Below are positions 544 to 33,036 of a stretch of DNA of 46,250 nucleotides, one piece after another. Source of the DNA: Candidatus Kaiserbacteria bacterium (lineage in GTDB: Bacteria; Patescibacteriota; Minisyncoccia; Phycocordibacterales; Phycocordibacteraceae); NCBI GenBank assembly GCA_027451665.1, contig DAIDIW010000002.1:1-46250 (forward strand). The letters run 5' to 3'. Every line of letters begins with the position of its first letter. The stretch's first letter is position 1. The translations under genes and the position numbers were made by a program. The notes under the pieces were generated by a model. The model saw only the letters and a list, made by a program, of their open reading frames with translations, searched no databases and was not told the DNA's origin.

Positions 544-552
544 TGGTATGCT
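544..552 (+). promoter_or_regulatory. Extended -10 promoter of rpmE2 (TGGTATGCT)
   Basis: TGn+TATGCT ends 8 nt before ATG 561; no SD. Confidence 0.65.
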
Positions 553-560
553 CTCGCCGT

Positions 561-809
561 ATGAAGAAAGACATCCATCCGTCCGACTATCGTCCGGTCG
601 TGTTCGAGGATCTCGCCTCCGGCGCGCAGTTCCTCATCGGCTCTACTATCCGGACCACGGAGACGACGACGTTCGAAGGGAGGGAATATCCCAAGTTTGT
701 CGTGGAAATCTCCTCGAAGAGCCACCCGTTCTATACGGGCGAGGACCGCATGCTCGACAAGACGGGACGCGTGGAGCGTTTCAAGCAGCGCGCGGCGAAG
801 AAGAAGTAA
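561..809 (+). CDS. rpmE2: 50S ribosomal protein L31 type B (Zn-free)
   Basis: [17 protein letters not shown]...[13 protein letters not shown]...GRVERF; no CxxC. Start moved from 543 to ATG 561. Confidence 0.95.
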
Positions 810-817
810 GGACTCAG

Positions 818-908
818 AAAGTGCTCCGATTTTTCGGTACGCCGTATTTTTCTGCTGAAAAATCGGTTCGCTCTCGCGCTCCGAGAGCCCGAAAAATCGG
901 AGCATTTT
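818..908. repeat. 20-bp inverted repeat enclosing two hairpins (three-way junction)
   Basis: aaagtgctccgatttttcgg (818-837) pairs with ccgaaaaatcggagcatttt (889-908). Inner hairpins at 842-866 and 870-888. Confidence 0.8.
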
Positions 909-947
909 CTTCGTGAGGAGAATAGAGTGATAGAGTAGAGGAACCTG

Positions 948-1898
948 ATGGAATACTCGCCTGATTTCAAGAAGAATTTCTCCACCGCGTATCTCGCGGA
1001 GGAGTACGAGCGCCTTGAAGAGGAGGCGGCAGACGCGCATACCGCGGCGGGAGAGAATGCGGAGCTCCGGACGCTCGCTGAAGAGGATGAAAAGCGCATC
1101 CGCGCGCGTCAGGGGGACCTGCTCGCCGAGATCGCGCGTATCCTCGACAAAGAGAAGGAAGAGGCTGCGAAGCCGACTTCGGTGGTCATGGAATTCCGCG
1201 CGGGCGCGGGAGGCGACGAGGCGAATATTTTCGCACATGATCTCATGGAGATGTACCAGAAGTACGCGGAAGCGCGAGGCTGGAAGACGAGGCTTGTGGA
1301 TGATTCGACGCTCGAGGTCTCGGGCAGCGATGCCTACGATGCGCTGCGCTACGAGACCGGCGTCCACCGGGTGCAGCGCATACCGGCGACGGAGAAATCA
1401 GGGCGCATCCATACCTCGACTGCCTCGGTAGCGGTGCTGCCTATCCGGCCGAAGACCACTGTCGAGATCAACCCGGCGGATATCGTCATGGAATTCTCGC
1501 GTGCCGGCGGCGCCGGCGGTCAGAACGTGAACAAGGTGGAAACTGCTGTGCGGCTCATCCATACGCCGACCGGTCTCGAGGTGCGGAGCCAGGCCGAGCG
1601 CAGCCAGCAGGCGAACCGCGAGAAAGCGATGGCCATCCTCTCGGCGAAGCTCGAAGCGCTCCATGAGGAGGAAGAGGCGAAAAAGCATGCCGCTGAGCGG
1701 AAAGAGCAGATCGGCACGGGCGACCGCTCCGAGAAGATTCGTACCTACAATTTTCTCCAGGACCGCGTGACGGATCATCGTCTCAAAGAGACCTGGCACA
1801 ACCTGCCGAAGATTCTCTCAGGCGGGCTCGATCCCATTATGGACGCGCTTCAGGCGGCCACTGCCGGGGCCGGGATAGGCGCCGCGGAGGAAGCATGA
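948..1898 (+). CDS. prfA: Peptide chain release factor 1
   Basis: GAGGQNVNK (GGQ) and [10 protein letters not shown] (the RF1 PxT motif), plus [12 protein letters not shown]. Confidence 0.95.
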
Positions 1899-1956
1899 AG
1901 AGAACGATTGCCCCTGGTTGCGATTTTGCATCTCCTGGGGTACAGTAGCCCCACAC

Positions 1957-2655: not shown

Positions 2656-2707
2656 CGGCAAGGTCGACTTTTGACGCGACGCGGTCCTCGTCCGCGCCTG
2701 CTCACGA

Positions 2708-2736
2708 TTGAAAATTGAGCGCTTATTTGTGATACT
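2708..2736 (+). promoter_or_regulatory. sigma70-type promoter of tsf
   Basis: TTGAAA-17 nt-GATACT (with TG extension), 12 nt before the ATG. Confidence 0.55.
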
Positions 2737-2748
2737 AGAACCACTATC

Positions 2749-3330: not shown

Positions 3331-3331
3331 C

Positions 3332-3739: not shown

Positions 3740-3780
3740 GCACGGCGGCCTCCGTACCTCGTCTTGGCTGTCCCGCTAGA

Positions 3781-3927: not shown

Positions 3928-4599
3928 TTAGCGCCGCGTGGTCGTGGCGGTCGAGGTAGCGAGCGCGCCCTTGGGGAAATCGCCCTCGAGATCAGCGAGC
4001 GAGGTAAAACCGTAGAAGTGCTTCCCGTTTATGATAAACGCAGGGAGCGCATCCTTCAGCTTCTCTACCTTTATGAGCGTCGTGAGGGCGCCGAGGTTCA
4101 GATTGTAGTCAAAGGAATACACGCGAAGCGCGGGGTAGGTATCGCGCAGGTAAGAGAGCGCATAGCCAGCCTTCGCACACTCAGCGCAATCGCCCGCGTT
4201 GCTGTAGAAATACAGGACCGTGATCGGCTTCGTGCCGCACGCGGCTGCGAGCTGCTTCGTAATGAGATAGTCGCGGATCTCAAGCAGGGAGTACTGCTCC
4301 TTCAGCCGTATGACTTCCGCGTTGTCACTGCCGAGCTGTCCTTCCGCATAGGCGAGCCGGTTCCCGAGGTCGGTGAGCTCGCCTGTAAGGTCGGTCGAGG
4401 AGGCCGTATCGCAGGGGGCGGTCTCGAGCAGCGAGAATTGGGTATCGAGCGACAGCGTATCGATCGAGAGCTGATCCTCGATAGCGGAGAGCTCGGCCAC
4501 GCGCTGCTGGTTCAGGTAGCTGATGGCGTAGGCGACGGTGCCCACGAGGACCACGGTTATACCGAGCGCGATGAGGCTGTTGCGAGTAACTATCGACAT
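3928..4599 (-). CDS. Membrane-anchored protein with C-terminal thioredoxin-like CxxC domain
   Basis: N-terminal TM, coiled coil, VLYFYSNAGDCAECAK...LRVYSFD, and a cis-Pro-like LPAFII. TAGAGT -10 lies 7 nt upstream. Confidence 0.8.
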   Translation of the reverse strand: MSIVTRNSLIALGITVVLVGTVAYAISYLNQQRVAELSAIEDQLSIDTLSLDTQFSLLETAPCDTASSTDLTGELTDLGNRLAYAEGQLGSDNAEVIRLKEQYSLLEIRDYLITKQLAAACGTKPITVLYFYSNAGDCAECAKAGYALSYLRDTYPALRVYSFDYNLNLGALTTLIKVEKLKDALPAFIINGKHFYGFTSLADLEGDFPKGALATSTATTTRR

Positions 4600-4626
4600 A
4601 GCTCGGACTCTAGCGTAGGAAGCGGC

Positions 4627-5916: not shown

Positions 5917-7071
5917 CTAGCGGATCGTGGCGGCGAATGCCTCGGCGGTCGCGTGTTCGAGCCGCGTATGGAGCGCGTCGACCTCGGTGCTCGTGAGCGT
6001 GCGGTCGAGCGCGCGATAGGTGATACGGTAGGCGTAGCTCATCTTGTTCGGTCCGAACTTCGCGTCGTTCTCGTAGCGGTCGAGGAGCGCTACGTCCTCG
6101 ACAAGGTCGCCGCCGATTTCGCGCACGAGGTCGAAATAATCGTTCGGCACGAAGGTCTTCGGCACGACGAAGGAAATGTCACGCAAGGAGGGCGGATACT
6201 TCGAGACCTCGTGGTAGGTCTCTCCGAGCACGAGCTGCCGCTTCACACGCGCGTCGTCGCTCCAGAGGAGCCGGATATCCGGCAGCGCCATGCTCGCAAT
6301 CGCAAGCCGCTCGAGACCAAAGCCGAACGCCCAGCCGTGATAGCCCGTCACGCCCATTTTCTTCAGCACGCTCGTTTTTGGCATGCCGCCGCCCAATAGC
6401 TCGAGCCACTCGCCTTTGGCGGGTCCTTCTGCCGCCGTGCCCTTCACGTTCAACTCGAGCTCGAGCGAAGGATCGGTGTAGGGGAAGGTGTCCGGATTGA
6501 AACGGAATCCAACGGACTCGCCGAAGACGCTCCTCGCGATCTGCGCGAGCGTCCCCTTCAGGTCCTCGACGGTCACCGCTTCGGTATCCGGCGCGATATA
6601 CCAGCCGCCCAACTGATGGAAGACATTCATATGGCGGCTGTCGATCTCGTCCTTGCGGTATACCTTGCCGTAGCAGATCGCGCCCATGGATTCTCCTTTC
6701 GCAAGACGCTCCTTCACGCGCGGATCGGTGAGGTAGTAGTACCAGAAAACAGTGTCATGGGTTCGTAGGATGTTGTTTGCATCCACGTAGTAGGTATCGC
6801 TCTGCGAGCGCGCCGGATGGTCTGGCGGAAAGTCGAAGAGGTCGAACGATATGTCTGCCGGTACGATCTCAGGAATTTCGATGACGTCGAATCCGGCAAG
6901 CGTCGGCACCCGCTTTACCCGCTCGACGAGCTCGTGGAGCGGGCTGCCGGGCGTACGGGAGAGATCGGGCATCGCGAGGTAGCGACGTTCGCGGATGGCC
7001 TCGAAATCGCTACGCGCCTCGAGCTCCTTCCGAAGGTGCATTTCTTCGCTGCGGTCAATCTGTATCTCCAT
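5917..7071 (-). CDS. pheS: Single-chain phenylalanyl-tRNA synthetase: alpha catalytic domain fused to the FDX-ACB anticodon-binding domain
   Basis: HPARSQSDTYY, LRTHDT, GKVYRKDEIDSRHMNVFHQL, FPYTDPSLE, GWAFGFGLERLA, then SKYPPSLRDISF...SYAYRITYRALDRTLTSTEV. Start moved to ATG 7071 (384 aa). Confidence 0.92.
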   Translation of the reverse strand: MEIQIDRSEEMHLRKELEARSDFEAIRERRYLAMPDLSRTPGSPLHELVERVKRVPTLAGFDVIEIPEIVPADISFDLFDFPPDHPARSQSDTYYVDANNILRTHDTVFWYYYLTDPRVKERLAKGESMGAICYGKVYRKDEIDSRHMNVFHQLGGWYIAPDTEAVTVEDLKGTLAQIARSVFGESVGFRFNPDTFPYTDPSLELELNVKGTAAEGPAKGEWLELLGGGMPKTSVLKKMGVTGYHGWAFGFGLERLAIASMALPDIRLLWSDDARVKRQLVLGETYHEVSKYPPSLRDISFVVPKTFVPNDYFDLVREIGGDLVEDVALLDRYENDAKFGPNKMSYAYRITYRALDRTLTSTEVDALHTRLEHATAEAFAATIR

Positions 7072-7079
7072 GATGTCCG

Positions 7080-7112
7080 AGTGTAGCAGGCGCATCCGCG
7101 GTGCGCTACGAT
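7080..7112. promoter_or_regulatory. Back-to-back divergent promoters (pheS TGCTACACT on -, phosphatase TACGAT on +)
   Basis: -10 boxes at 7080-7085(-) and 7107-7112(+), 8 and 6 nt from their ATGs, in a 47-bp intergenic gap. Confidence 0.6.
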
Positions 7113-7118
7113 AGGCGC

Positions 7119-7751
7119 ATGGAGATTGTGAAGCACGTCTACCTCGTCCGGCACGGGGAGACGGATAGCAATGTCGACGGTATCTTTCGCGGACGTGACT
7201 CCGCACTTACCGAGCGCGGCAAGAAGCAGGCGCAGATCGTTGCGGAACGCATCAAGCATCTTGCTATCGAGGCGCTCGTATCGAGCACCTATCCGCGCGC
7301 GCTTGATACTGCAAGCGCGATCGCGGAAGCCACGGGCCTCATGGTGGAGCCGAGTGAGCTCTTCGTTGAGACGGGAGAAGCGAGCGTGCTCAGAGGAAAA
7401 CCGAAGGATCACCCGGAACGGATTGCAGCACTTGCTGCGATGGATGCGCAGAACCACCCTGACTACCGTCATTCCGACGAAGAGAATTTCCGAGAACTTT
7501 CCGAACGTGCGCAAGCGGCGCTCGACTTCCTGCGGAATCACGAGGCCGCATCATTGTGCGTCGTCACGCACGGCGCGTTCTTGAGAGTCCTCATGGGCTC
7601 AGTGCTCTTTAGGGATGACTTCTTGAGAAGCCAATTCGTGCAGATGCTCCGTCATTTTAAGACCGAGAACACGGGAGTGAGTCATATCTCTCATACGAAC
7701 GACAGGGGGTGGCAGCTCATAACGCTTAACGACGACGCGCATCTTCTTTAG
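7119..7751 (+). CDS. Histidine phosphatase family (phosphoglycerate mutase-like) protein
   Basis: YLVRHGET, SSTYPRALDTA, VTHGAFLR, NTGVS. Start moved to ATG 7119. Confidence 0.9.
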   Translation: MEIVKHVYLVRHGETDSNVDGIFRGRDSALTERGKKQAQIVAERIKHLAIEALVSSTYPRALDTASAIAEATGLMVEPSELFVETGEASVLRGKPKDHPERIAALAAMDAQNHPDYRHSDEENFRELSERAQAALDFLRNHEAASLCVVTHGAFLRVLMGSVLFRDDFLRSQFVQMLRHFKTENTGVSHISHTNDRGWQLITLNDDAHLL

Positions 7752-8118: not shown

Positions 8119-8127
8119 TGGTATACT
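8119..8127 (+). promoter_or_regulatory. Extended -10 promoter of gyrB (TGGTATACT)
   Basis: Near-consensus TGn-TATACT, 27 nt before the ATG. Confidence 0.65.
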
Positions 8128-8154
8128 AGGAATAACCGAAGCGCGGCTATTTTT

Positions 8155-10233
8155 ATGGCTAAAAAGGCTGAAAACGAGATCAAGAAATCCTCCTATGACG
8201 CCTCGAGCATCCAGGTGCTCGAGGGACTTGAACCGGTCAGGAAGCGCCCGGGCATGTACATCGGGACGACCGGTCCCGAGGGCCTCCATCACCTCATCTG
8301 GGAGATCTTCGACAACGCGCGCGACGAGGCCATGGGCGGCTACGCCGACGACATCGAGGTGGCGCTCCTTCCGGGCGGCTACGTGCGCGTAGTCGATAAC
8401 GGCCGCGGCATTCCTGTCGGCATCCATCCGAAGACGAAGGTCTCGGCCCTGGAGACGATCATGACGACGCTCCACGCGGGCGGCAAGTTCGGCGGCGAAG
8501 ATTCCGGCTACAAGGTCTCAGGCGGTCTCCATGGCGTCGGCGCCTCCGTTGTGAACGCGCTCTCGACCAACATGAAAGTGCTCGTCCACAAGGACGGCGG
8601 GATCCACATGCAGGAATACAGGATCGGCAAGCCGCTCGCGAAGGTGAAGCAGGTCGGCAAGACGAAGCGACAGGGTTCGATCGTCATGTTCAGCCCCGAT
8701 GCGAGCATCTTCACTGGCGGCATTGAATGGAACTGGGAGAAAATTGTGAACCATCTTCGACAGCAGGCGTATCTTGTGAAGGACGTTCGCATCACGGTGA
8801 TTGATGCACGCGAGGACACGCGCGCCGGGATGGAAGCAGACGACGCATTCTACTTGCGCGAGCTCCCGCTCGACGTTCCTTCCATGACCTTCTTCTTCGA
8901 GGGCGGTCTCCGTTCGCTCGTCGCCTTCTACAACAAGTATCAGACACCGGTCCATAAGAACATCTTCTACGTCGACAAGGAGCAGGACGGCGTCGCCGTC
9001 GAGGTCGCGCTCCAGTACGTGGACGACATTACGCCGCGGCTCATTGCGTTTGCGAACAATATTTACAATCCTGAGCACGGGACGCACGTAACTGGTTTCA
9101 AGACGGCCCTCACGCGCACCCTGAACACCTACGGGCGCGCGGCGAACCTTATCAAGGAGAAGGACGAGAACTTCACGGGCGACGACGTGCTCGAGGGCAT
9201 CACCGCGGTTGTCAGCGTGAAGCTGCCGGAGATCCAGTTCGAAGGGCAGACCAAAGCGAAGCTCGGGAGCGTCGAGGCCCAAGGCGCGACCGCGACCGTA
9301 TTCGGCGAAGCGTTCGCGGCCTTCCTCGAGGAAAATCCCGACGACGCGAAGGCGATCGTGAACAAGGTGCTGCTTGCCTTGAAGGCGCGTAAGGCCGCGA
9401 AGGCCGCGAAGGACTCGGTGCTCCGCAAGGGAGCGCTCGAGGGTATGACGCTCCCAGGGAAGCTCGCGGACTGCCAGACGAAATCTGCTGAAGAGTCCGA
9501 GCTCTTCATCGTAGAGGGAGACTCGGCAGGCGGCACCGCGAAGACCGGACGCGACCGCCGTACGCAGGCCATCCTGCCCTTGCGCGGCAAGATCCTGAAC
9601 GTCGAGCGGGCGCGTCTCGACAAGATGCTTGCCTCCGAACAGGTGAAGAATCTCGTGGTCGCCTTGGGCACCGCGATCGGCGACATCTTCGATCTCTCGA
9701 AGCTCCGCTACCACAAGCTCATCATCGCGACCGATGCCGACGTGGACGGCGCGCACATCCGGACGCTCATCCTGACGCTCTTCTACCGTCATTTCCGCGC
9801 CATCATCGACGGCGGATTTGTCTACATCGCGCAGCCGCCGCTTTATAAGATCACCCGCGGTAAGGAGGTACGCTACGCCTATGTGGATGCGGAGAAGGCG
9901 AAGATACTGAAGGAGATGGGCGTCGCCGAAGAGGATGCCGTCGAATCGAGCGAAGAAGCGCCGATTGAGAACGAAGCTGAGGAGGAAGCGGGTGCGCCGA
10001 AGGTGAAGAAGAGCGCACGTGCGAACGTGCAGCGCTACAAGGGCCTGGGTGAGATGAACGCGTCCGAACTCTGGGAGACCACGATGGATCCGGCTCATCG
10101 CGTGCTGAAGCGGGTTACGGTCGAAGATGCCGAGGCTGCCGACAGGATCTTCGACATCCTCATGGGTACCGACGTCGCAAGCCGCAAATCGTTTATCCAG
10201 TCGAATGCGAAAGCCGCGACCTTGGACGTGTAA
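8155..10233 (+). CDS. gyrB: DNA gyrase subunit B
   Basis: YDASSIQVLEGLEPVRKRPGMYIG, GGLHGVGASVVN, EGDSAGG, ATDADVDG, QRYKGLGEMN. Confidence 0.97.
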   Translation: MAKKAENEIKKSSYDASSIQVLEGLEPVRKRPGMYIGTTGPEGLHHLIWEIFDNARDEAMGGYADDIEVALLPGGYVRVVDNGRGIPVGIHPKTKVSALETIMTTLHAGGKFGGEDSGYKVSGGLHGVGASVVNALSTNMKVLVHKDGGIHMQEYRIGKPLAKVKQVGKTKRQGSIVMFSPDASIFTGGIEWNWEKIVNHLRQQAYLVKDVRITVIDAREDTRAGMEADDAFYLRELPLDVPSMTFFFEGGLRSLVAFYNKYQTPVHKNIFYVDKEQDGVAVEVALQYVDDITPRLIAFANNIYNPEHGTHVTGFKTALTRTLNTYGRAANLIKEKDENFTGDDVLEGITAVVSVKLPEIQFEGQTKAKLGSVEAQGATATVFGEAFAAFLEENPDDAKAIVNKVLLALKARKAAKAAKDSVLRKGALEGMTLPGKLADCQTKSAEESELFIVEGDSAGGTAKTGRDRRTQAILPLRGKILNVERARLDKMLASEQVKNLVVALGTAIGDIFDLSKLRYHKLIIATDADVDGAHIRTLILTLFYRHFRAIIDGGFVYIAQPPLYKITRGKEVRYAYVDAEKAKILKEMGVAEEDAVESSEEAPIENEAEEEAGAPKVKKSARANVQRYKGLGEMNASELWETTMDPAHRVLKRVTVEDAEAADRIFDILMGTDVASRKSFIQSNAKAATLDV

Positions 10234-10354: not shown

Positions 10355-11110
10355 TCAGGAGCCGAGGATGGTGAGCATCGCCGACGCGTCGTTGTTGGCC
10401 GTGGTCGCGTCCGAGCCGCCCGGGTTCAGGTGTATCGAGATGGACTGCTTCGCGCCGGCATTCGCCTCATCGAAGCCGAGCGTGAACTGGATGCTTTCAC
10501 CAGGGCGCAGCACCTGCTGTGTTGGCGCGGTGTAGACATAGGCGGTCTGCGTCGGGATCTTCGCGGTGAAGTTCCAGGGCTGCGAGATGTTCGTGCCCAC
10601 GTTCTTCACCGTGAAGACGATTGCCGGCCGGGAGCCGTGGGGGACCGTCGAGCTCGCGACGAAGGACTCTGCGGAGGTGGTCGCGAGATAGCCGATCCGG
10701 TCGATGGTTACCGCGAGGTCGGGAAGACCATAGTACGTGCCCGTCGGCGTAGCGCCCGAGATCGTCGTGGTCGTCGACGTCTCGCGTCCGGGTTGCGGCA
10801 CGGGGTAGTGAGGCGTTGCGGGCGTACGCGAGGTTTGCGGGGCGGCCGCGGTCGTTGATGAAGATGAGAGTGCGCTCTCGACCGTCGACGTCGCGTCAGG
10901 GACGACGGAAAGCGAAGGTCTCGGGGAAGGAGAGAATGCGGAACTCAGGTAGACGGCAGCGGCGCCGAGGTGATCGACGGCGGCAGGGACGAAGCGCGCC
11001 GAATAGACTGCGAGCCACATGCCAAGCGCGACGAGCGCGACGAAGCCAACAATCGCAAGTCCATTCCGGGCGGATTCGCGGGTTCCTGGGTTCGGGGTGA
11101 GCGGGTCCAT
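10355..11110 (-). CDS. Membrane-anchored protein with S/T/P linker and C-terminal CARDB-like Ig domain
   Basis: TM GLAIVGFVALVALGMWLAVY, low-complexity stalk, PDLAVTI, FTVKNVGT, LRPGES, ANNDAS. Confidence 0.8.
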   Translation of the reverse strand: MDPLTPNPGTRESARNGLAIVGFVALVALGMWLAVYSARFVPAAVDHLGAAAVYLSSAFSPSPRPSLSVVPDATSTVESALSSSSTTAAAPQTSRTPATPHYPVPQPGRETSTTTTISGATPTGTYYGLPDLAVTIDRIGYLATTSAESFVASSTVPHGSRPAIVFTVKNVGTNISQPWNFTAKIPTQTAYVYTAPTQQVLRPGESIQFTLGFDEANAGAKQSISIHLNPGGSDATTANNDASAMLTILGS

Positions 11111-11205
11111 GAGATAGGTAATTTACAATAATGTTATTGGCTGTCAAGCTTTCGTACCGCGGCTTGACGATATTGACAATACGGTGTATTTGTTGGCAAG
11201 ACGAT

Positions 11206-11898
11206 ATGGAGGGGTTGGTACGCATCACGGCTCGGCTCGTCCGGGCGGCCAGGCTTGCTTATACGAGGAAGTGGACCTTCCTTGCACTCACGCTATCCGT
11301 ATTCCTGCTGTCCGTGTATGCGCTTTCCGTCCTTGGGCTGCTTCCGGATGCACCGGTCGCTTCCGCCGTTCCTGCAGACGGGATAACGCTTGCGTCGAGC
11401 ACATCTCTCGTGGCATCTGTGGATGCCGCGCCCGCGCTTGCAGGGATTGGCGAAGACCCTGTGAAGATCTCGATTCCCGTCATCAATCTCTCGGCAACTA
11501 TCGCGAACCCTGACACGACCGACATCGCTGCACTTGATGCGCTTCTTCTCAAGGGAGCGGTCCGCTACCCGACCTCGGTAAAACTCGGAGAAGATGGTAA
11601 TCTCATCCTGTTCGGCCATTCGAGCTATCTTCCCGTCGTACGGAACCAGGCCTACAAGACCTTTGACGGCATCCAGAAGCTTCATCCCGGGGACACCATC
11701 ACGATCTATTCATCTGACGCCGCGTACCTCTATAGCGTGCGGAGCGTCGAGAAGGAGAATGCGACTTCAGCCGCGATCCCGCTGTCCGTGAGCGGGAAGG
11801 TACTCACGCTCTCCACGTGCGATTCTTTCGCCGCGAAAACCGACCGGTTCGTGGTCACCGCCGATTTTGTGGGCAGTCATCCGATTACGGCCTCGTAG
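11206..11898 (+). CDS. Sortase family transpeptidase
   Basis: N-terminal TM; V.I.IP.INLSATI, GAVRYP, GNLILFGH (His), F..IQKLHPGDTITI, LTLSTC (TLxTC), TDRFVVTA (Arg). The catalytic triad is complete. Start moved to ATG 11206. Confidence 0.92.
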   Translation: MEGLVRITARLVRAARLAYTRKWTFLALTLSVFLLSVYALSVLGLLPDAPVASAVPADGITLASSTSLVASVDAAPALAGIGEDPVKISIPVINLSATIANPDTTDIAALDALLLKGAVRYPTSVKLGEDGNLILFGHSSYLPVVRNQAYKTFDGIQKLHPGDTITIYSSDAAYLYSVRSVEKENATSAAIPLSVSGKVLTLSTCDSFAAKTDRFVVTADFVGSHPITAS

Positions 11899-11930: not shown

Positions 11931-12010
11931 CGGAGCCGTGGTAGCTCCGTACCGTACTTTCAACCATGCCTCTCTCGAAACGAGAGTGGCGCAATAGAGG
12001 AGGAACACCA

Positions 12011-21919: not shown

Positions 21920-22026
21920 AGAAATGGCTTTCCCCAAGGATGGGCCTTGAAGGGAGTCTTCATGTGTTGTATAACGGGCCATTAGTCGCAGACGAGTACA
22001 TTCTGAAACGAGAAAGGGGATTCTCC

Positions 22027-22470
22027 ATGGATATTCGAACGCCCGACCAGGAACCGGAAGGCGAAGTGGTTCTACATCTCAATCTTCCGGTTTCTTGTCC
22101 GCGTATCCTGAAAAAACACCAAGGACTCGACTTGAAGTCGGCGATAGTTATCGAGAGCGACGGCACATTGAAGCTGAGCTTCTCAAAGATGGCGATTGAC
22201 TTCGTGCCTCCGGAAGCGCTTTCCGGCGGCCGTTTCGACCTCCTGCGTGGCGGCAACCGTCATCGGGAGCTCGAGCACTGGAGCCCACATGGCAGCGGCA
22301 TTCGGGCCCGACACCTGCTTCCGTACGATCGGATAGAAGTGAGGGCGCGTGTGCCGCTCTACCCGGTGCTCTTTCACGCGAGCCTGTGCGGAAACGTGAA
22401 GATCTACTGGATCGATTCGTGCCTTCATAAGAAGCTCACGGAGAGCAAGCGTACTGTAGACGTCGCTTGA
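22027..22470 (+). CDS. Orphan hypothetical protein (147 aa)
   Basis: TATAAC -10-like box, aaagggga SD-like sequence, ATG 22027, strong terminator after the stop; no family recognised. Confidence 0.6.
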   Translation: MDIRTPDQEPEGEVVLHLNLPVSCPRILKKHQGLDLKSAIVIESDGTLKLSFSKMAIDFVPPEALSGGRFDLLRGGNRHRELEHWSPHGSGIRARHLLPYDRIEVRARVPLYPVLFHASLCGNVKIYWIDSCLHKKLTESKRTVDVA

Positions 22471-22529: not shown

Positions 22530-22549
22530 CGTCTGCTATCCTGAATTAC

Positions 22550-23419: not shown

Positions 23420-23530
23420 GATAAGAATTATTGGCAGGCTTTGGTGTCAGAAGCGTGCAGCATCGAGGGGCGCTCCATAACAAACGGGGCGCTCTTTTCT
23501 TTTGGCATGACGCATGCTAGAGTTCCGGTC

Positions 23531-23863
23531 ATGTCAGTACGAATGCGCCATACGCGCGCCCATACGAATAACCGCCGCAGTCACCATGCGCTGTCGGCCA
23601 CGAAGACCGTCAAGGACAAGGAGAGCGGCAAGCTCCGCCTCCCGCATCGCCTTGACGAGTCCACCGGCATGTACCGCGGCAAGCAGCTCTTCACGCCGAA
23701 GGTCAAGCAACCGAAACAGGCGCATACGCACGGCACGCATCACGAGCATGTCCGCGAAGAGATAGCGGACGAACAGAAGCCGGAGGAAGCGAAAGCGGTC
23801 GAGCAGACCAGCAAAGGGAAGAGGGGACACGCGAAAGAAGGTCCCGGCCCGGACGGAAAATAA
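23531..23863 (+). CDS. rpmF: 50S ribosomal protein L32 (Zn-free) with long C-terminal extension
   Basis: [21 protein letters not shown]...LRLPHRL...GMYRGKQL, no Cys. Start moved to ATG 23531 (TGCTAGAGT 7 nt upstream). Confidence 0.9.
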
Positions 23864-24059: not shown

Positions 24060-24962
24060 ATGGCGAACCGGCACCTAGCACGCTCAGTGGTATTGCAGAC
24101 CCTTTTCGAACGGGATACCACGCACGTATCCGAGAAAGAGACGCAGGATATTCTCGCGCGCAATGCCGAAGAATTCGGCGGCGACGATACCGACCGCCCA
24201 TTCATGGATCAGCTGCTCGCGGGCGTCATCGCGAAGCAGAAGGACATCGACCTCATCATAGAGAAGGCGGCGCCCGACTGGCCCCTGGACCGCATTGCTC
24301 CGGTAGACCGCAACATCCTCCGCATAGGCCTCTACGAGCTCCTCTTCGCTGACCGCGCCCAGGTACCGGCGAAGGTCGCTATTAATGAAGCGATCGAGCT
24401 TGCGAAGACGTTCGGCGGCGAATCCTCTGGTCGGTTCGTGAACGGCGTCCTCGGCGCGGTCTATAAGGAGATAGGCGAGCCGGGCAAGGATGAGCAGGGC
24501 AAGAAGAAGGTAAAGCGCGAGGAGCTGCCGCTCGAGAAAATGGGCGGGGCCATCGTCTACGCGAAGCATGACGGCCAGTATTATCTTGCGCTTGTCCATG
24601 ACGTATTCGGGCGCTGGACTCTGTCGAAGGGGCACATAGAGAATGATCCGTCGCCGGAAGAAGGAGTAAAACGCGTCGTAAAGGAAGAGCTCGGGCTCGA
24701 CGCGGCCGTACATGATCAGGTGGGCGAGAACGAATATGTCGCGAGCCATCCGGAGAAGGGGAAAGTGCGCAAGCATGTGTGGTTCTTCGTAGCCGAAGCC
24801 CCGTTCGAGCCCCTCGCACTCAAGAAATCCGGCGGGCTCGACGATGCCAAGTGGTTCCGGCTCCAGGACATCATCGACCTCAATTTCTACGATGACATGC
24901 TGCCGATCGTGACCGCCGCCGTGCAAAAACTGCTCGATCAGACGGCTCCAGCAGCCCGCTAG
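24060..24962 (+). CDS. nusB: Transcription antitermination factor NusB fused to a C-terminal NUDIX domain
   Basis: NRHLARSVVLQTLF, VDRNILRIGLYEL, PAKVAINEAIELAKTFG, FVNGVLG; then WTLSKGHIE...KEELGL. Start moved to ATG 24060. Confidence 0.92.
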   Translation: MANRHLARSVVLQTLFERDTTHVSEKETQDILARNAEEFGGDDTDRPFMDQLLAGVIAKQKDIDLIIEKAAPDWPLDRIAPVDRNILRIGLYELLFADRAQVPAKVAINEAIELAKTFGGESSGRFVNGVLGAVYKEIGEPGKDEQGKKKVKREELPLEKMGGAIVYAKHDGQYYLALVHDVFGRWTLSKGHIENDPSPEEGVKRVVKEELGLDAAVHDQVGENEYVASHPEKGKVRKHVWFFVAEAPFEPLALKKSGGLDDAKWFRLQDIIDLNFYDDMLPIVTAAVQKLLDQTAPAAR

Positions 24963-25003: not shown

Positions 25004-25027
25004 CGCCTTGTGCTATAAACTAGCCAT

Positions 25028-26119: not shown

Positions 26120-26178
26120 ACTTTGCTAAGGGTGAGGCGCAGAGTTTCAGGAGCCGCTGTTATTTGGAGGATAAGACG

Positions 26179-27087
26179 ATGGTTATCACTGAACGAGAAG
26201 GTTCATCCCGGACGATTGCCGCCGCAGGATCCGGGGTGGTCGACTTCAAATGGAGTGATGGATGGTCGGTGTTCGATGTCGGCAGGAGTCCGCAGCCCAT
26301 TCCTGGCTTCGGTGTATGCCGCACCGCGTGCGCAGTAGAATCATTTCGCCTGCTCCAGCGTGCTGGCATCCCTACGCCGTACATGAAAAGGATAGACGAA
26401 CGCACTGTCCGCGTCCGCGAGTTCCAGGTCCCCGGTCATGAGCCGCTTTCCGGCAAGGCAGAAGGGCTTGTGCTGCCGCTCGAATGGCTCTTCCGCTACG
26501 AGATCGGTGAGAAGTTTCGGAACCGGGTCCGCAAGGGCGAGATCTCACTCGACGCGCTCGGCCTTCCGCCAGGGACCGACATCAATACGGTGATAAAGTT
26601 GCCGCGCATCTTCGTCGAATGCTCGACGAAGTTCGAACGGCGCGACCGGTATCTGTCCGACGAGGAAGCGCGAAAGAAGGCGGATCTCGATGAGGGGGCT
26701 TGGATGGTCGCGCGCGCCTGTGTAGTGCGCGCCGCATTCATTCTGCAGCAAGAACTCAATCGCTGCGGATACGACCTGCTCGACGGAAAGTTCGAGCTCG
26801 GCCGGACATGGGACGGGCGCATCATGCTCGTCGATGTCGCCGGTTCGCCGGACGAGATTCGTGCGCGTAAGCGCGTGGATGGTCGGCTCTACTGCAAGGA
26901 GCCGCTGCGCGAATACCTCGAGACGCTGCCATGGCGCGAAGAGCTGCGGATTGCACAGGGCGCATATCCGGACGACTCGTCTCACTGGCCGTCGTATCCG
27001 GTCTTGCCGGACGATATCGTCGATTACCTTTCGGATCTGTACCGCGAGTTTACCCTGGATTACACGGGGAAACGCGTCGAGGCCTGA
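26179..27087 (+). CDS. Divergent SAICAR synthetase (PurC)-like protein
   Basis: FKWSDGWSVFD, AGIPTPY, LPLEWLFR, CSTKFERRDRYLS, LDGKFELG, DVAGSPDEIR, KEPLREY; SD ggagg 8 nt before ATG 26179. Confidence 0.75.
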   Translation: MVITEREGSSRTIAAAGSGVVDFKWSDGWSVFDVGRSPQPIPGFGVCRTACAVESFRLLQRAGIPTPYMKRIDERTVRVREFQVPGHEPLSGKAEGLVLPLEWLFRYEIGEKFRNRVRKGEISLDALGLPPGTDINTVIKLPRIFVECSTKFERRDRYLSDEEARKKADLDEGAWMVARACVVRAAFILQQELNRCGYDLLDGKFELGRTWDGRIMLVDVAGSPDEIRARKRVDGRLYCKEPLREYLETLPWREELRIAQGAYPDDSSHWPSYPVLPDDIVDYLSDLYREFTLDYTGKRVEA

Positions 27088-27146: not shown

Positions 27147-27161
27147 GTATACTTGCCATAA

Positions 27162-29360
27162 ATGCTGAAGCGGCTTGAAATCGCCGGGTTCAAATCCTTC
27201 GCCAAGAAGACCGTCTTGGACTTTTCGACCGCGACCACTGCAATCGTGGGGCCGAACGGTTCCGGTAAATCGAACGTAGCCGAGGCGTTCCGTTTCGCGC
27301 TCGGCGAGCAGTCCATGAAGAGCATGCGCGGGAAGCGCGCCGAAGACCTCATTTGGGGCGGTTCGCACACGAATCCGCGCGCGAACCGCGCGGGGGTCGC
27401 CATCGTCTTCGATAATACGAAGCGCATCTTCAAGATCGATTTCGATGAGGTGGTCATCGAGCGCGTCGTCTTCCGGGACGGCTCGAGCGAGTATTCCATA
27501 AACGGTTCCCGCGTCCGCTTGCGCGACGTAGCGGAGCTTCTCGCGAGCGCGAATATCGGCGAGACCGGTCACCACATCATCTCGCAAGGGGAGGCGGACC
27601 GTATTCTGCTCTCGTCCTCGCGCGAGCGCCGCGCGATGCTCGAGGACGCGCTCGGGCTCAAGATCTATGAATTCAAGAAGACCGAAGCGGAACGGAAGCT
27701 CGAGAAGACGGAGGAGAACATTCAGCAGGTAAATAGCTTGCGGCGAGAGCTCGCCCCGCATCTGCGCTTCCTCGAGAAGCAGGTCGAGAAGCTCGAACGC
27801 GCGGAGGAGCTTCGGACGGAACTCGTCTCGCTAGCGCAGACCTATTTTGCGATCGAGGACGGCTATCTCGAGCGCGAGAAGCGCGCGCTCGGCGAGGCGA
27901 AATCGCGCGCGACGGAGCGCTTCACGGCGGCGAGCGCCGAGCTCGTCGAGATTGAAGAGCGTGCAACTACCGATGTCGAAGGGACGAAGCGTCTCGCGAG
28001 CGTGCGGGAGGCTGAGAAGCGCATCGACGCGTTCACGGCGGAGAAGAGCGCGCTCGCGCGCGAGATGGGCAGAGTCGAAGGAGGACTCGCTGCTGCGAAG
28101 GATCGCAGCGCAAGAGCGGCACGCGAACCGTACGCAAAGGTGCCTCGCGAGGATCTCACCTCGCTTGCCGAAGAGATCGAAAGGCAGACGAAGGGAGCGA
28201 CGGCTCCTGAGGCAGCGCTCGCCGCGCTTGCAGCAATCCGTACCGCGGTCCGCGCCTTTGTCGAGCGCTATGTCGGGCACCGGGATGATCTTCTCGAAGA
28301 GGAAGAGCGCCTTGTCTACGCTCTTGAGCACGAACGGGATCAGCTCGCCGCTAAAGACCGCGAGCTCTCTGTACGTCTCGAGGATGCGCGCGCAGCGCTT
28401 TCGCGCGCGAGAGAGGCGCTTACCGCCCATGATGAGACCGGAAAGGAATTGCGCCGCCGAATCCTTGACCTTGCGCAGAAGAAGGCGCACGAGGAGGGCG
28501 AGATCGCTCGCCTCGAAGCCCGCGAGCGAGAACTGCATCTCTTGCGTGAGGCGCTTGAGCGCCAGAAGGGAGAGACGCTCTCGGTCGCGGGTACGGGAGC
28601 CGTCACGTATGCGCCGCTCAACTCGCTCCCAGACGAACCCCGTACGGTCCAAGAAGACCGTTTGCGGCAGCTCGAGCGGATGAAGATCCGGCTTGAAGAG
28701 GCTGGCGGAACGGGCGAGGATATCCGTGCCGAGTTCAAGGAGATTTCCGAACGGGAAGCATTCCTCGGCCGCGAGCTCGACGATCTTGATCATTCCGCGG
28801 CAGGCTTGAGGCAGCTCATAGACGACTTGAATGCCGAGCTTGCGAAGCATTTTGCGGATGGCCTTGCGAAGGTGAATGCTGCGTTCAGCGAATACTTCGC
28901 GCTTATGTTCGGCGGTGGCGCAGCGCGCCTCTCGCTCGAAGAGCCCGAAGAGGAAGGGGGAGAGGAAGAAGAAGCTGAGGACGACCTTGCGCAGCCCCAG
29001 AAGAAGCAGGGAATAGAGATCGCGGTGAACCTGCCGAGAAAAAAGGTGAAAAGCCTCATGCAGCTCTCGGGCGGAGAACGCGCGCTCACCTCGATTGCGC
29101 TCATCTTCGCGATGAGTCAGGTAAACCCTCCGCCGTTCCTTATCCTCGACGAGACTGACGCCGCGCTCGACGAGGCGAACTCACGGCGCTACGGCGACAT
29201 GATTGAGAACCTCGCGAGGAAGTCCCAGCTCATTGTCATTACGCATAACCGCGAGACCATGAGTCGCGCCGGCATCCTCTACGGCGTCACGATGGGGAAC
29301 GACGGCGTTTCGAAGCTCCTCTCGGTCAAGTTTGAAGAAGCCGTTCAAGTTGCAAAATAA
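27162..29360 (+). CDS. smc: Short SMC-family ATPase (732 aa)
   Basis: LKRLEIAGFKSF, GPNGSGKSN, ISQGE (Q-loop), LSGGE, LILDETDAALDEAN, VITHN; short coiled coil. Confidence 0.88.
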   Translation: MLKRLEIAGFKSFAKKTVLDFSTATTAIVGPNGSGKSNVAEAFRFALGEQSMKSMRGKRAEDLIWGGSHTNPRANRAGVAIVFDNTKRIFKIDFDEVVIERVVFRDGSSEYSINGSRVRLRDVAELLASANIGETGHHIISQGEADRILLSSSRERRAMLEDALGLKIYEFKKTEAERKLEKTEENIQQVNSLRRELAPHLRFLEKQVEKLERAEELRTELVSLAQTYFAIEDGYLEREKRALGEAKSRATERFTAASAELVEIEERATTDVEGTKRLASVREAEKRIDAFTAEKSALAREMGRVEGGLAAAKDRSARAAREPYAKVPREDLTSLAEEIERQTKGATAPEAALAALAAIRTAVRAFVERYVGHRDDLLEEEERLVYALEHERDQLAAKDRELSVRLEDARAALSRAREALTAHDETGKELRRRILDLAQKKAHEEGEIARLEARERELHLLREALERQKGETLSVAGTGAVTYAPLNSLPDEPRTVQEDRLRQLERMKIRLEEAGGTGEDIRAEFKEISEREAFLGRELDDLDHSAAGLRQLIDDLNAELAKHFADGLAKVNAAFSEYFALMFGGGAARLSLEEPEEEGGEEEEAEDDLAQPQKKQGIEIAVNLPRKKVKSLMQLSGGERALTSIALIFAMSQVNPPPFLILDETDAALDEANSRRYGDMIENLARKSQLIVITHNRETMSRAGILYGVTMGNDGVSKLLSVKFEEAVQVAK

Positions 29361-29486: not shown

Positions 29487-30716
29487 ATGGCTGCATTCGA
29501 GCATTTCAAGGAGCACGTAGATTCTGCCGCCCGCTTACTCGGACTTTCTGACACGGAGCGACAGGCGCTCGAAAAGCCTGACCGCGTGCTGCGCGCGGAT
29601 CTCTCCGTAGCGCTGGACGATGGAAACACGGAAACCTTCCCCGCGTATCGCGTGCAATTCAATAACGCACGCGGACCCTACAAGGGTGGCATACGCTTCC
29701 ATCCTGAAGCGGACGAGGACGAGGTCTCTGCGCTTGCGGCAATGATGGCGGTGAAGTGCGCGGTGGTGGGCATCCCGTTCGGAGGCGCCAAAGGAGGCGT
29801 TACCGTAGACCCTAAGAAGCTCTCGGCGGGCGAGCGCGACAGGCTCGCCCGCGCGTATGCGCGCGCATTCGCGGATCATCTCGGTCCGGACAGCGATATT
29901 CCGGCCCCGGACGTCTACACGACGAGTGAGACCATGGCGTCGATGCTCGACGAGTACGAGCGGCTCATCGGGAAGAGCGCGCCCGCGATGATCACCGGGA
30001 AGCCGCTCTCCCTGGGCGGCAGCCTCGGCCGTGACACCGCGACTGCCGATGGCGCGATCGCCGTGCTTGAGGCGCTCCTGGAAGACGAACAGCTCGATGC
30101 GGCGTCGCTTTCGGCTGCCGTGCAAGGCGCGGGCAATGCCGGCGCGCACGCCGCACGCCGTCTCGCGCATATGGGCATGAATATCGTCGCACTCTCCGAT
30201 TCGTCGGGGACGCTCCTCTCCCCCGAGGGGATCGAGGTGGAAGCGGCGCTTGCTGGGAAGCAGGCTCATAAGGAATTCGCGGCGTGGGGCGAGGTTGCAG
30301 GCGTTGAGAAGGTCATGGAGACGGAAGCGGGCCTCTTCGTACCCGCGGCGCTTGAGGAACAGCTCACGAAGGATACGGTCGAGGCGTTGCGCGCGAAGTA
30401 TGTGCTCGAGATCGCGAACGGTCCGACGACACCGGAGGCCGATCGTGCGCTTTTTGCGCGCGGCGCCACCGTCATACCTGACGTACTTGCGAACGCGGGC
30501 GGCGTCACCGTCTCGTATTTCGAGTGGATCCAGGGACGCACCGGCGAACGCTGGGAACTCAATCGCGTGAGCGCTGCGCTTTCACGAACGATGCAGAGCG
30601 CGTACCGCGAGGTCGCTGATATCGCGCGCGCGCGCAGCGTATCATTGCGCGACGCGGCGTACGTCCTCGCTCTGGGCCGCCTCACAGACGCGATGCGCGC
30701 GCGCGGCCGCTGCTAG
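29487..30716 (+). CDS. gdhA: Glu/Leu/Phe/Val dehydrogenase (glutamate dehydrogenase-like)
   Basis: RVQFNNARGPYKGGIRFHP, GGAKGG, DIPAPDV, ITGKP, GAGNAG, EIANGPTT, PDVLANAGGVTVSYFEW. Confidence 0.92.
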   Translation: MAAFEHFKEHVDSAARLLGLSDTERQALEKPDRVLRADLSVALDDGNTETFPAYRVQFNNARGPYKGGIRFHPEADEDEVSALAAMMAVKCAVVGIPFGGAKGGVTVDPKKLSAGERDRLARAYARAFADHLGPDSDIPAPDVYTTSETMASMLDEYERLIGKSAPAMITGKPLSLGGSLGRDTATADGAIAVLEALLEDEQLDAASLSAAVQGAGNAGAHAARRLAHMGMNIVALSDSSGTLLSPEGIEVEAALAGKQAHKEFAAWGEVAGVEKVMETEAGLFVPAALEEQLTKDTVEALRAKYVLEIANGPTTPEADRALFARGATVIPDVLANAGGVTVSYFEWIQGRTGERWELNRVSAALSRTMQSAYREVADIARARSVSLRDAAYVLALGRLTDAMRARGRC

Positions 30717-30731
30717 GATCGCCCGTAGGAA

Positions 30732-30767
30732 GAACCTCCGCGCTGAATTTCCTCAGCGCGGGGGTTC
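30732..30767. terminator. Hairpin downstream of gdhA
   Basis: gaacctccgcgctga/tcagcgcgggggttc. Confidence 0.6.
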
Positions 30768-31041
30768 GACGCAAGTTGCTGCAATCCGGACATCTCGTAA
30801 TCGAGAAGAAGCTGATCGCTTGGCGCGAACGGGAGCCTGGCGAGCTTGCCGGTCCTCTCGGCGAACCGTATGGCGCGCAAACGGAGGACTGGGTCACGAA
30901 AGCGGTGCTACAGAATCTTAAGCGTCGTCCGCAGCGGGTTAAAAAGCGGCCGCGCAGAGAGGCCTCCGGCAACCGATCGTTGCATGAAATCCACTCCTCG
31001 CGTTTTAGGGAGGTTGTAGCGCACGAACCGGCCTCGTGCAG

Positions 31042-32991
31042 CTACACCGGTACGAAATCGAGCTCCTTGTCCGCGACGCGTGCCGCCTCAAGGCGCACCT
31101 TGATAGGATCCCCGAGCTGATACACGGCGCCGGTTTTCTTGCCTACAAGCCGGAAACGCTTCTCGTCGAATTCGAAATAGTCGTTGCCGATATCCTTGAT
31201 GCGAATCATACCGTCGGCGTGCGTCTCGCGCTCTTCCACATAGAGACCGCGATCGGTCACTCCGGAGATGACGGCGTCGAAGACTTCGCCGATGCGCGGC
31301 GCGAGGAATTCGACTTGCTTCATTTTGATGCTGTCGCGCTCGGCGTCTGCGGCCGCTACCTCGCGTTCGGAGGAATGCCGCGCAATCTCGTCGAACTCGG
31401 CCATCTCCTTCTTCGTGACGTTCTCGCCGCCCGCGTGGCTCTTCACGAGCCGGTGGATGATGAGATCGGGATATCGCCGGATCGGGGACGTGAAATGCGT
31501 GTAGTAATCGAACGCGAGGCCGAAATGCCCGATGTTCTTCGTCGCATAGGTCGCCTTAGCCATCGAACGCAGGATAGCCGTCTTCACGAGATACTCTTCC
31601 GGCGTGTGCTTCACCTCATCGAGCACGCGGTTCAGTTCCGCTCCGGATACCGACCCGCTTGCTGCTTTCAGGTGGTAGCCCATGACCTGCAGGAGGTGGG
31701 CCAAGGTTGCGATACGGTCGGCATCCGGGGTGTCGTGGATGCGGTAGAGCGTCTCGAAATGCGGGCCTCCGTTAGCGGTCAGCTTCGAGAGATACTCCGC
31801 GACGTTTTCGTTCGCGAGCAGCATGAAATCCTCGATCATGAGATTCGTCGCCTTGCGCTCCTTGAGATGGATTGCGACCGGATTGCCCGTCTCGTCGAGT
31901 TCGACCTTCACCTCCGGCGTATCGAATTCGATCGCGCCCTTTTGCTGCCGGCGCGCTCGGATCCGCATTGAGAGGTCGAGGAGAATCGCGAGCTCGCCGT
32001 GAAGGTCGCCGTGTCCGGAATCCAAGGTTTCCTGCGCATCCTCGTAGGTATAGCGACGGTCGCTATGGATAACCGTCTCACCGAACCACGTGTCGATGAC
32101 GTTTGCCTTCTCATCGAGCGTGAAGACTGCCGAGACCGCAAGCCGGTCCTCGCCTTGCACGAGGGAACAGAGGTTATTCGAAAGCACTTCGGGGAGCATC
32201 GGGATGGTGCGATCCACGAGATACACCGAGGTCGCGCGTTCGCGCGCTTCACGATCGAAGGCGTCGTCGGGCTTCACGAAGAAGGAGACGTCGGCGATGT
32301 GAATGCCGATCTCGTAGTGCCCGTCATCGAGTTTCTTTACCGAGAGCGCATCATCGAAATCTTTCGCATCGACGGGATCGATCGTGCAGGTGGGACGATC
32401 GCGGAAATCCCGCCGCGGGCTCGACCCCAGGCGCCCCACCTCCGCTTCGATGAGATTCTTGCCCGTACGTTCGTAGCGTTGCGCTTCCGTCTCGACGCCG
32501 GGAGGGAAGTCGCTCGCAAAACCTTGGTCGAGCGCGAGAGCACGCATCTCGGTCTCATGGATGCCGGCCTTGCCGATTATTTCCTCGACGTCGCCCCAGG
32601 GTGCGGCAGCGTCTTCCGGCCAGCCCTTTACCCGTACAAGCACCTTGTAGCCGGGCTCGGCACCCCGCGCTTCCTTCACGGATATCGGGAGATGCATCCG
32701 CTTGTAGTCGGGCTCGATGAAGAGTCCATGCTCATCCTGTTCCAGCGTGCCCACGAAGGTCTCGCGAGCGCGCTTCACGATCTCGATGACCCTTCCGCTC
32801 TCGCGTGGCGGCATGCGGTTCAGAGGGTCACGGTACAGGCCGACCGGTACGACTTTCACGAGGTCGCCATGGAGCGCATGGAGGGTGTGCTCGGGCGGAA
32901 TCAGGAGATCTTCCGCCTCGTCGCCTCTCTTGAAGAAACCGATGCCTTTACGGGTTATCGTGATGGGCCCTTCGTACGTCGCTTCCGTCAT
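31042..32991 (-). CDS. rnr: Ribonuclease R (RNB family) with S1 domain
   Basis: TIDPVDAKDFDDALS, IHIADVS, RATSVYL, LIEDFMLLANE, HFGLA, YTHFTSPIRRYPDL. Start moved to ATG 32991 (TGCTAGAGT 7 nt upstream). Confidence 0.95.
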   Translation of the reverse strand: MTEATYEGPITITRKGIGFFKRGDEAEDLLIPPEHTLHALHGDLVKVVPVGLYRDPLNRMPPRESGRVIEIVKRARETFVGTLEQDEHGLFIEPDYKRMHLPISVKEARGAEPGYKVLVRVKGWPEDAAAPWGDVEEIIGKAGIHETEMRALALDQGFASDFPPGVETEAQRYERTGKNLIEAEVGRLGSSPRRDFRDRPTCTIDPVDAKDFDDALSVKKLDDGHYEIGIHIADVSFFVKPDDAFDREARERATSVYLVDRTIPMLPEVLSNNLCSLVQGEDRLAVSAVFTLDEKANVIDTWFGETVIHSDRRYTYEDAQETLDSGHGDLHGELAILLDLSMRIRARRQQKGAIEFDTPEVKVELDETGNPVAIHLKERKATNLMIEDFMLLANENVAEYLSKLTANGGPHFETLYRIHDTPDADRIATLAHLLQVMGYHLKAASGSVSGAELNRVLDEVKHTPEEYLVKTAILRSMAKATYATKNIGHFGLAFDYYTHFTSPIRRYPDLIIHRLVKSHAGGENVTKKEMAEFDEIARHSSEREVAAADAERDSIKMKQVEFLAPRIGEVFDAVISGVTDRGLYVEERETHADGMIRIKDIGNDYFEFDEKRFRLVGKKTGAVYQLGDPIKVRLEAARVADKELDFVPV

Positions 32992-33036
32992 GCGTCCCAC
33001 TCTAGCAGATACGGTTCGGTTTGCTATGCTTAGGAC

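Follow-up and report, generated by a model that had tools for sequence, protein, structure and literature searches.

Leaderless-type gene starts and a small Shine-Dalgarno-like class in a Parcubacteria genome without an anti-Shine-Dalgarno sequence

Among the genomes rich in leaderless genes are those of Mycobacterium and Streptomyces (Actinobacteria), of Deinococcus-Thermus and of 'group C' of GeneMarkS-2. It is generally known of such bacteria that a -10 box lies 6-9 nt before the start, where no Shine-Dalgarno (SD) motif is present, that AUG is the strongly preferred start codon, that a third or more of the genes are of this kind and that annotated starts are often too long. The same holds for the genome described here, that of an uncultured Kaiserbacteria-like organism, in which we have studied how genes begin, taking as the window a stretch of 46,250 bp (C2:1-46250) with its promoter boxes abutting start codons and its SD-like sites. 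Leaderless-rich bacteria differ from this host in keeping the CCUCC anti-SD sequence and in placing SD motifs on their leadered genes; in the host the anti-SD is gone, the leadered genes are mostly SD-less and the promoters are extended -10 elements for which no -35 can be detected, the leaderless assignment being one of geometry. Two further patterns may be compared. In the SD-independent initiation of Bacteroidota most genes lack an SD motif, as in the host, but the anti-SD is retained and the mRNAs are leadered with A-rich upstream signals, whereas the host has a mutated anti-SD and, as its dominant signal, a promoter that abuts the ATG. In the archaeal pattern (e.g. Sulfolobus) the first cistrons are leaderless and the internal ones carry SD motifs, giving two classes of start as in the host; the internal cistrons of the host, however, are SD-less and closely coupled, and its SD-like sites stand on separately promoted accessory genes.

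Within the Parcubacteria a subgroup without the anti-SD and without ribosomal protein uL1 has been described (Tsurumaki, Saito, Tomita and Kanai 2022, RNA 28:1041; PMC9297842). The host belongs to this subgroup, with which it shares the Parcubacteria affiliation, the lack of CCUCCU at the 16S 3' end and the lack of a uL1 gene. The word leaderless is absent from that paper, and gene starts and residual SD-like motifs lie outside its analysis; what is added here is the link of promoter-proximal starts with anti-SD loss, together with the SD-bearing accessory genes.

The host is, to judge by its sequence, a member of the candidate phyla radiation (CPR)/Patescibacteria, represented by a Parcubacteria/Paceibacteria metagenome-assembled genome (MAG) of 720,282 bp in 9 contigs (GC 0.58, 47 tRNA genes, 96.8% complete). 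The best relatives of its DnaE from public genomes belong without exception to Paceibacterota/Parcubacteria MAGs, among them those of Kaiserbacteria, Taylorbacteria, Nomurabacteria and Adlerbacteria. Genes were called with our own script for open reading frames (ORFs) and a codon model, which gave 620 genes above the chosen score cut-off. Starts were chosen by coding potential and start-codon type, with a test for the -10 box added for the leaderless class only; SD motifs were excluded from start selection throughout, so that the starts are blind to SD. Genes with a -10 box at the start form the strict leaderless class (L), other genes class O, and 16 genes the SD-led set. For comparison a genome of the same family, G077 (569 kb), was put together from fetched pieces and matched with the host through reciprocal-best orthologues. 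ARAGORN found a tRNA-Ile with anticodon UAU, uncommon in bacteria, at C1:221310-221384, and called no tmRNA gene in the assembly.

Promoter boxes at gene starts

An earlier reading of the window from its letters alone (the sequence-only reading) had taken housekeeping genes to be leaderless and accessory genes to carry SD sites. A genome-wide scan of upstream regions with a script of our own found the leaderless geometry far above chance. The hexamer TANNNT ends 6, 7, 8 or 9 nt before the first ATG of the selected ORF in 88, 48, 34 and 26 genes, respectively, where about 3 would be expected at each distance; the corresponding values for TGNTANNNT are 30, 17, 11 and 9 genes against 0.1-0.3, and the enrichment over expectation is 30- to 100-fold. 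The two genome strands hold 531 copies of TGNTANNNT, and 97 of these are followed by a called start at a distance of 5-10 nt. Of the 620 genes, 241 (39%) belong to the strict class. Some 30 further genes have an imperfect box at the same position, and in about 30 others TANNNT lies 10-11 nt away, which implies very short leaders. The association is specific to ATG: among 5'-proximal codons the box accompanies 19% of the ATGs, as compared with 2.7% for GTG and 1.9% for TTG. Alignment of the strict class on the box gives the logo T-G-n-T-A-t-a-a-T, with T1, A2 and T6 of the hexamer invariant and no information at the -35 position. SD motifs are absent in front of these genes, the box itself filling the SD position. 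In 82% of the genes outside the strict class a pyrimidine occupies position -1. The first-gene mRNAs of the strict class are probably leaderless, with the transcript starting at the AUG. The suspicion that the starts of the ORF track are too long was well founded, since in 91 of the 241 leaderless-type genes the frame stays open further upstream (median excess 15 codons).

In 11 divergent gene pairs the start codons are at most 60 nt apart, and 16 of the 22 member genes belong to the strict class. So close are the start codons (47 nt for pheS/phosphatase, 20 nt for the ATGs at 11110 and 11131) that there is room only for back-to-back -10 boxes.

One might suppose that TAnnnT is an AT-rich, non-SD translational signal on longer mRNAs rather than a promoter, as A/U-rich upstream signals of a non-SD kind occur in Bacteroidota and certain other groups. 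The motif nevertheless has the exact signature of a sigma-70 extended -10 element, with TG at -3/-2 of the hexamer, the three invariant positions and a free middle, which makes an RNA-pairing or S1-binding site unlikely, as neither would show it. It also occurs 11-150 nt upstream of the leadered gyrB, nusB, PurC-like and AdoMetDC genes (the last two are treated below), it is associated with ATG only, and divergent starts 20-47 nt apart leave no space between them for promoters of another kind; the genome also codes for a full RpoD with regions 2-4. We regard a translational role for the motif as very improbable.

In the window, TAnnnT 6-9 nt 5' of the ATG is present in all 11 of the genes for which it had been claimed (Table 1), and the TG extension said to be usual is canonical (TGn) in seven of the 11. 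The proposed ATGs are supported as true N-termini by Pfam domain coordinates, since the profiles start at, or no more than 8 residues from, these ATGs (protein residue to profile position: L31 1 to 1, SMC_N 1 to 1, RNase HII 4 to 1, PHP 7 to 1, His_Phos 7 to 1, NusB 7 to 3).

A few features of the window genes are recorded here for their own sake. The SMC protein (27162-29360) has only 732 aa; bacterial SMC proteins typically have about 1,100-1,200 aa. The L32 protein (23531-23863), of 110 aa, extends at its C-terminal end far past the 56-residue Pfam domain. The divergent ATGs at 11110 (- strand) and 11131 (+ strand) belong to genes within 10355-11898, and the AT-rich, palindrome-like intergenic sequence ATTGTAAATTACCTAT between them would have to serve both.

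Table 1. Start-proximal promoter boxes and SD-like sites in the window. The spacer is the number of nt between box and ATG; the coordinates of all sites were verified.
Feature	Element and position	Strand	Spacer and start	Remark
rpmE2 (L31)	TGGTATGCT, extended -10, 544-552	+	spacer 8, ATG 561	
Unknown conserved gene 3928-4599 (4599 gene)	TAGAGT 4612-4607	-	spacer 7, ATG	element 4597-4612
GT2 glycosyltransferase	TGCTATTCT 5884-5876	-	spacer 7, ATG 5868	
pheS	TGCTACACT 7088-7080	-	spacer 8, ATG 7071	
pheS/phosphatase	7069-7121	both	47 nt between start codons	back-to-back divergent promoters, leaderless type
Histidine phosphatase	TACGAT 7107-7112	+	spacer 6, ATG 7119	
gyrB	TGGTATACT, then 29-nt leader, 8119-8157	+		housekeeping gene with leader, no SD
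12011 gene	GAGGAGG 11997-12003	+	7 nt before ATG 12011	375-aa secreted orphan
59-aa orphan ORF 18696-18517	GAGGAG 18708-18703	-		candidate gene
dnaE	TGGTATCCT 21919-21911	-	spacer 9, ATG 21901	
147-aa orphan ORF 22027-22470	weak AAGGGG 22014-22019	+		candidate gene
rnhB	TGCTATCCT 22534-22542	+	spacer 7, ATG 22550	
rpmF (L32)	TGCTAGAGT 23515-23523	+	spacer 7, ATG 23531	
rnc	TGCTATAAACT 25011-25021	+	spacer 6-8, ATG 25028	
PurC-like promoter	TTGACT 26117, 17 nt, CAGAGT 26140	+	leader ~25-30 nt	putative transcription start
PurC-like gene 26179-27087	GGAGG 26166-26170	+	8 nt, ATG 26179	
smc	TATACT 27148-27153	+	spacer 8, ATG 27162	
25-codon frame	GAGGAG 30999-30994	-	ATG 30985	
rnr	TGCTAGAGT 33007-32999	-	spacer 7, ATG 32991	
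45576 gene	GGGAGG 45563-45568	+	7 nt before ATG 45576	follows rpoD

The genes that belong neither to the leaderless nor to the SD class number 363, and 116 of these lie no more than 20 nt from the preceding gene on the same strand or overlap with the preceding gene; an ATGA overlap is common to 34 gene pairs genome-wide. In 39 genes an extended -10 box is found 11-150 nt upstream, and these genes therefore have leaders. Leaders falling within 11-70 nt, without SD, precede gyrB, rpoB, nusB (24 nt for the nusB-NUDIX gene) and gdh. The genes outside the strict class that are leadered or internal to operons and lack an SD include gyrB, rpoB, rpoC, rpoD, rpsB, tsf, thrS, nusB and trmD. The equation of housekeeping with leaderless was right in that many genes have leaderless geometry, but many core genes do not have it, and the GT2 and 4599 genes do; the split is therefore not one of housekeeping versus accessory genes. 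NusB and, at its C-terminal side, a NUDIX hydrolase domain form a single fusion protein of 300 aa (24060-24962), and the same fusion occurs in a relative (L122).

The layout is kept in relatives. Of 75 Paceibacteria relatives, which span GC contents of 0.28-0.64, 61 have a -10 box 5-10 nt, mostly 6-7 nt, before the ATG of dnaE, and no SD precedes dnaE in any of the 75. In G077, 218 of the 506 genes are of the strict leaderless type, and between reciprocal-best orthologues of the host and G077 the class is L in both in 95 cases, O in both in 138 and mixed in 100. We found no paper in the literature that describes the leaderless layout in Parcubacteria, Patescibacteria or CPR; this architecture is of a known kind and appears undescribed for the lineage, for which anti-SD loss alone has been published.

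The 16S rRNA tail

The sole 16S rRNA gene ends in GGAACAUAUCCAAUU, with UAUCC in place of CCUCC; the stretch after helix 45 is GGAACAUAUCCAAUUGG in the host and GGAUCACCUCCUUA in E. coli. The gene is divided over two contig ends (C5:69772-71138 and C4:1-240) with an overlap of about 140 nt. CCUCC is likewise missing in 29 of 29 relatives of the same order, taking one 16S per genome, as well as in G077 and in G151, another relative, the tail of which is ACAUUUCCGAUU. Typical tails among the relatives are GGAAUAUUUCAAAUU and GGAUCAAUUCCAAUU. No match to Ribosomal_L1 was found anywhere in the host genome; all 14 control genomes gave one. A four-domain S1-like protein is encoded.

Upstream regions gave no duplex-energy signal of complementarity to the host's own tail, the mean energies against it being -2.9 kcal/mol for class O, -4.2 for the SD-led set and -3.6 for coding controls; against the canonical tail the SD-led leaders average -10.0 kcal/mol. 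The second of the two proposed regimes had been thought to be one of SD recognition. With CCUCC missing from the only 16S it cannot be SD/anti-SD pairing, and this absence, taken with the lack of complementarity to the real tail, means that classical SD pairing is not a general regime in the host.

We also considered whether the -10-like motif could itself pair with the changed end of the 16S, of which TTGGATATG is the reverse complement. This was rejected because GGATA and GATAT are unenriched, the middle positions of the logo are free and the duplex-energy signal is absent.

Genes with SD-like leaders

A GGAGG ending 5-9 nt upstream of the start is seen in 11 non-leaderless genes, where about 1 would be expected; all distances (d) of 10-35 nt together give 5. 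A count made without regard to the chosen starts gave 51 against 34 expected, and the 4-mers GGAG/GAGG are barely enriched (35 against 21). SD-like sites above chance are confined to some 11-17 of the 620 genes, which is far from most leadered genes. For the SD-led set of 16 genes about 4-5 would be expected by chance; one member, prfA (GAGGA, d=5), is a false positive, as a -10 box 11 nt upstream fits better.

The SD-led genes differ from the rest in codon score (0.14 against 0.26 per codon, p=3e-4). Their GC content (0.58 against 0.59) and length show no difference from the rest, and the idea that they are set apart by GC was rejected. In G077 reciprocal-best orthologues exist for only 2 of the 16, as compared with 334 of the 604 other genes (p=6.6e-4). 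Pfam families were lacking in 7 of the 10 SD-led genes that were scanned; for the scanned window cases the figure is 4 of 5. As a control, the leaderless 4599 gene, which is also Pfam-less, occurs in 37 of 100 genomes of the order. The deficit of orthologues in G077 and the rarity in the order of two SD-led genes (at 12011 and 26179, see below), set against this control, agree with an enrichment of the SD class in lineage-specific or acquired genes.

The clearest case of import lies outside the window. The gene for S-adenosylmethionine decarboxylase (AdoMetDC; C2:194459-194932, - strand), which immediately precedes the ATP synthase operon, has AGGAGG with a 5-nt spacer, and its product is 77-81% identical to proteins of Rhizomicrobium/Alphaproteobacteria, which points to inter-phylum horizontal transfer from an alphaproteobacterium-like donor. 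The proposal that SD sites mark acquired or accessory genes is upheld statistically in the host genome by the codon score, the deficit of orthologues and the absence at the order level, but a distant-phylum donor was seen within the SD-led set for AdoMetDC only. PAPS-reductase-like and PRTase-like proteins are also encoded by SD-led genes. Another member of the set, a 272-aa ORF without a Pfam family (C2:93052-93870), overlaps an opposite-strand tRNA-Thr (93658-93734) and is either miscalled or an unusual overlap.

Of six SD genes cited for the window, all have the sites (Table 1), but three are doubtful, namely two orphan ORFs and a frame of 25 codons. For the ORFs at 22027 and 18696 no homologue was found beside dnaE in 80 relatives or in G077, so that they are no more than candidate genes; and since only 25 codons are open from the ATG at 30985, this is probably not a gene and the match probably a chance one. 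The 12011 gene has a homologue in 0 of 100 genomes of the order. The 45576 gene follows rpoD in relatives too, and because of this synteny it looks lineage-specific rather than recently imported. Its homologues align from the ATG at 45618, which makes its true start uncertain, perhaps 45618; in relatives it is preceded by looser purine-rich patches (GGGGAAGAG, AGAGGAA, AAGGA) and in one of them by a leaderless-type box. A His/Thr-rich, A/C-rich stretch, MHTTMTTHTTEQMT (45576-45620), precedes the conserved MKKM start, and a similar A/C-rich stretch is present in a relative (L158); it may be leader and not coding.

The PurC-like gene occurs in 2 of 100 genomes of the order and has only 8 homologues (E<=1e-10) among 5.8 billion clustered proteins. 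Its product is highly divergent and SAICAR-synthetase-like, the nearest protein outside the lineage being an archaeal PurC of 31% identity; the gene lies between ybjQ and smc in a genome with little biosynthesis. Its syntenic orthologues (76% and 59% identity) keep TTGACT, the 17-nt spacing, CAGAGT, a short leader (about 25-30 nt) and GGAGG 8 nt before the ATG, with different bases between the conserved blocks. One of the genomes carrying it is G151, the sole GGAGG-keeping relative of which the 16S was checked, and it too is without CCUCC. An AdoMetDC orthologue (81%) in another Parcubacteria genome has a TATACT box about 65 nt upstream together with GGAGGcctggATG, and the ATP-synthase neighbourhood is common to both. 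The leader of the PurC-like gene shows no structure and folds less well than its shuffles (z=+1.0). A riboswitch or other known RNA in the SD-bearing leaders was considered and rejected, as no Rfam family matches.

These observations bear on the view that the sites are chance purine-rich matches in a genome of 58-60% GC and the class an artefact of selection by eye. Three of the six window sites are weak or stand before doubtful ORFs, the 4-mers are hardly in excess, prfA is better explained by its -10 box and G077 has only 2 such genes, all of which would suit it. Against it are the concentration of GGAGG at d=5-9 as compared with d=10-35, the excess in the start-agnostic count, the retention of the motif in orthologues and a tie, other than random, to codon usage and to the absence of orthologues. 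The chance reading, improbable in our judgement, is largely refuted for the class taken together. The SD-marked class is real and small, is enriched in lineage-specific or acquired genes and cannot be a classical SD regime.

Whether GGAGG is a functional ribosome-binding signal read by non-canonical means, and so a second initiation route for leadered accessory genes, is a different matter. The candidate readers would be the UCC core, which is the only complementarity to GGAGG left in the host tail, pairing weakly with GGA with the help of wobble pairs, or another segment of rRNA, or an S1-like factor. The motif sits at the classical distance of 5-9 nt with about tenfold enrichment, and it is kept with its promoter in the PurC-like and AdoMetDC orthologues just described while its neighbours vary; the tail of G151 could pair with GGAGG by 3 Watson-Crick and 2 G-U pairs, and the 26179 leader has a Duplexfold energy of -5.8 kcal/mol with the host's own tail. 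The SD-led mean against that tail, however, is close to the coding controls and far from the value for the canonical tail, GGATA, the perfect complement of UAUCC, is unenriched, most tails of the order (AUAUUUCAAAUU) are even less complementary, and the conservation comes from two genes and three to four sequences only. Such a route, and with it any one of these readers, seems to us rather unlikely.

Explanation and significance

The explanation that we consider probable is one of a leaderless main route without SD/anti-SD pairing, supplemented by close coupling and by imported GGAGG leaders. The first genes of transcription units would be driven by -35-independent extended -10 promoters (TGnTAtaaT), from which RNA polymerase would begin at the A of the ATG or 1-3 nt upstream of it, and the leaderless mRNAs would presumably be bound via their 5'-terminal AUG without an SD. 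Pairing of the classical kind is unavailable, as is directly visible in the sequence (UAUCC for CCUCC), a condition that is order-wide and linked with the loss of uL1. Downstream genes would be reached by close coupling to the preceding gene, and leadered SD-less genes presumably read by an SD-independent route, an S1-like protein being encoded. The GGAGG motifs of some 11-16 leadered genes, mostly lineage-specific, Pfam-less or acquired, would have entered with imported SD-bearing leaders. They may have persisted because a purine-rich, unstructured stretch aids SD-independent loading, or through weak GGA:UCC pairing, with no second full SD regime.

Several points weigh against this explanation. 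The leaderless status of the genes is a matter of promoter geometry, and spacers of 8-9 nt may yield leaders of 1-3 nt in place of none. Gene calls and starts come from a simple ORF and codon model and not from a validated gene finder, and the 16S tail is that of the gene, from which the mature 3' end may differ. GGAGG is kept at 59-81% protein identity while its flanks have changed, which points to selection on the motif, so that a pure relic does not explain it; the unstructured purine patch may be no more than conjecture. The number of SD-like genes in G077 is at the chance level, and the SD class is accordingly not a shared family trait. That SD-led genes are island cargo beside tRNA genes was rejected, as there is a trend only (median distance 3.4 kb against 7-9 kb, p=0.07).

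For annotation the consequences are practical. In such genomes a large part of the genes will be given wrong starts by gene finders that look for a ribosome-binding site or choose the longest ORF, and as the Parcubacteria make up a very large uncultured share of bacterial diversity the effect is a wide one. The SD-bearing class offers a handle on the expression of foreign genes in such cells and bears on the function of SD-like sequences independent of an anti-SD.

Translation initiation throughout the order appears to do without the SD/anti-SD interaction, and it seems to rely instead on leaderless mRNAs and close coupling, which fits a reduced ribosome without uL1 and anti-SD. It is conceivable, though we think it unlikely, that a ribosome without CCUCC recognises GGAGG leaders on a small, horizontally replenished accessory set by some means other than classical tail pairing. 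Were this true, imported SD-bearing genes would be expressible on arrival in Parcubacteria, selection would keep their SD, and the lineage would be a natural system for SD function without an anti-SD.

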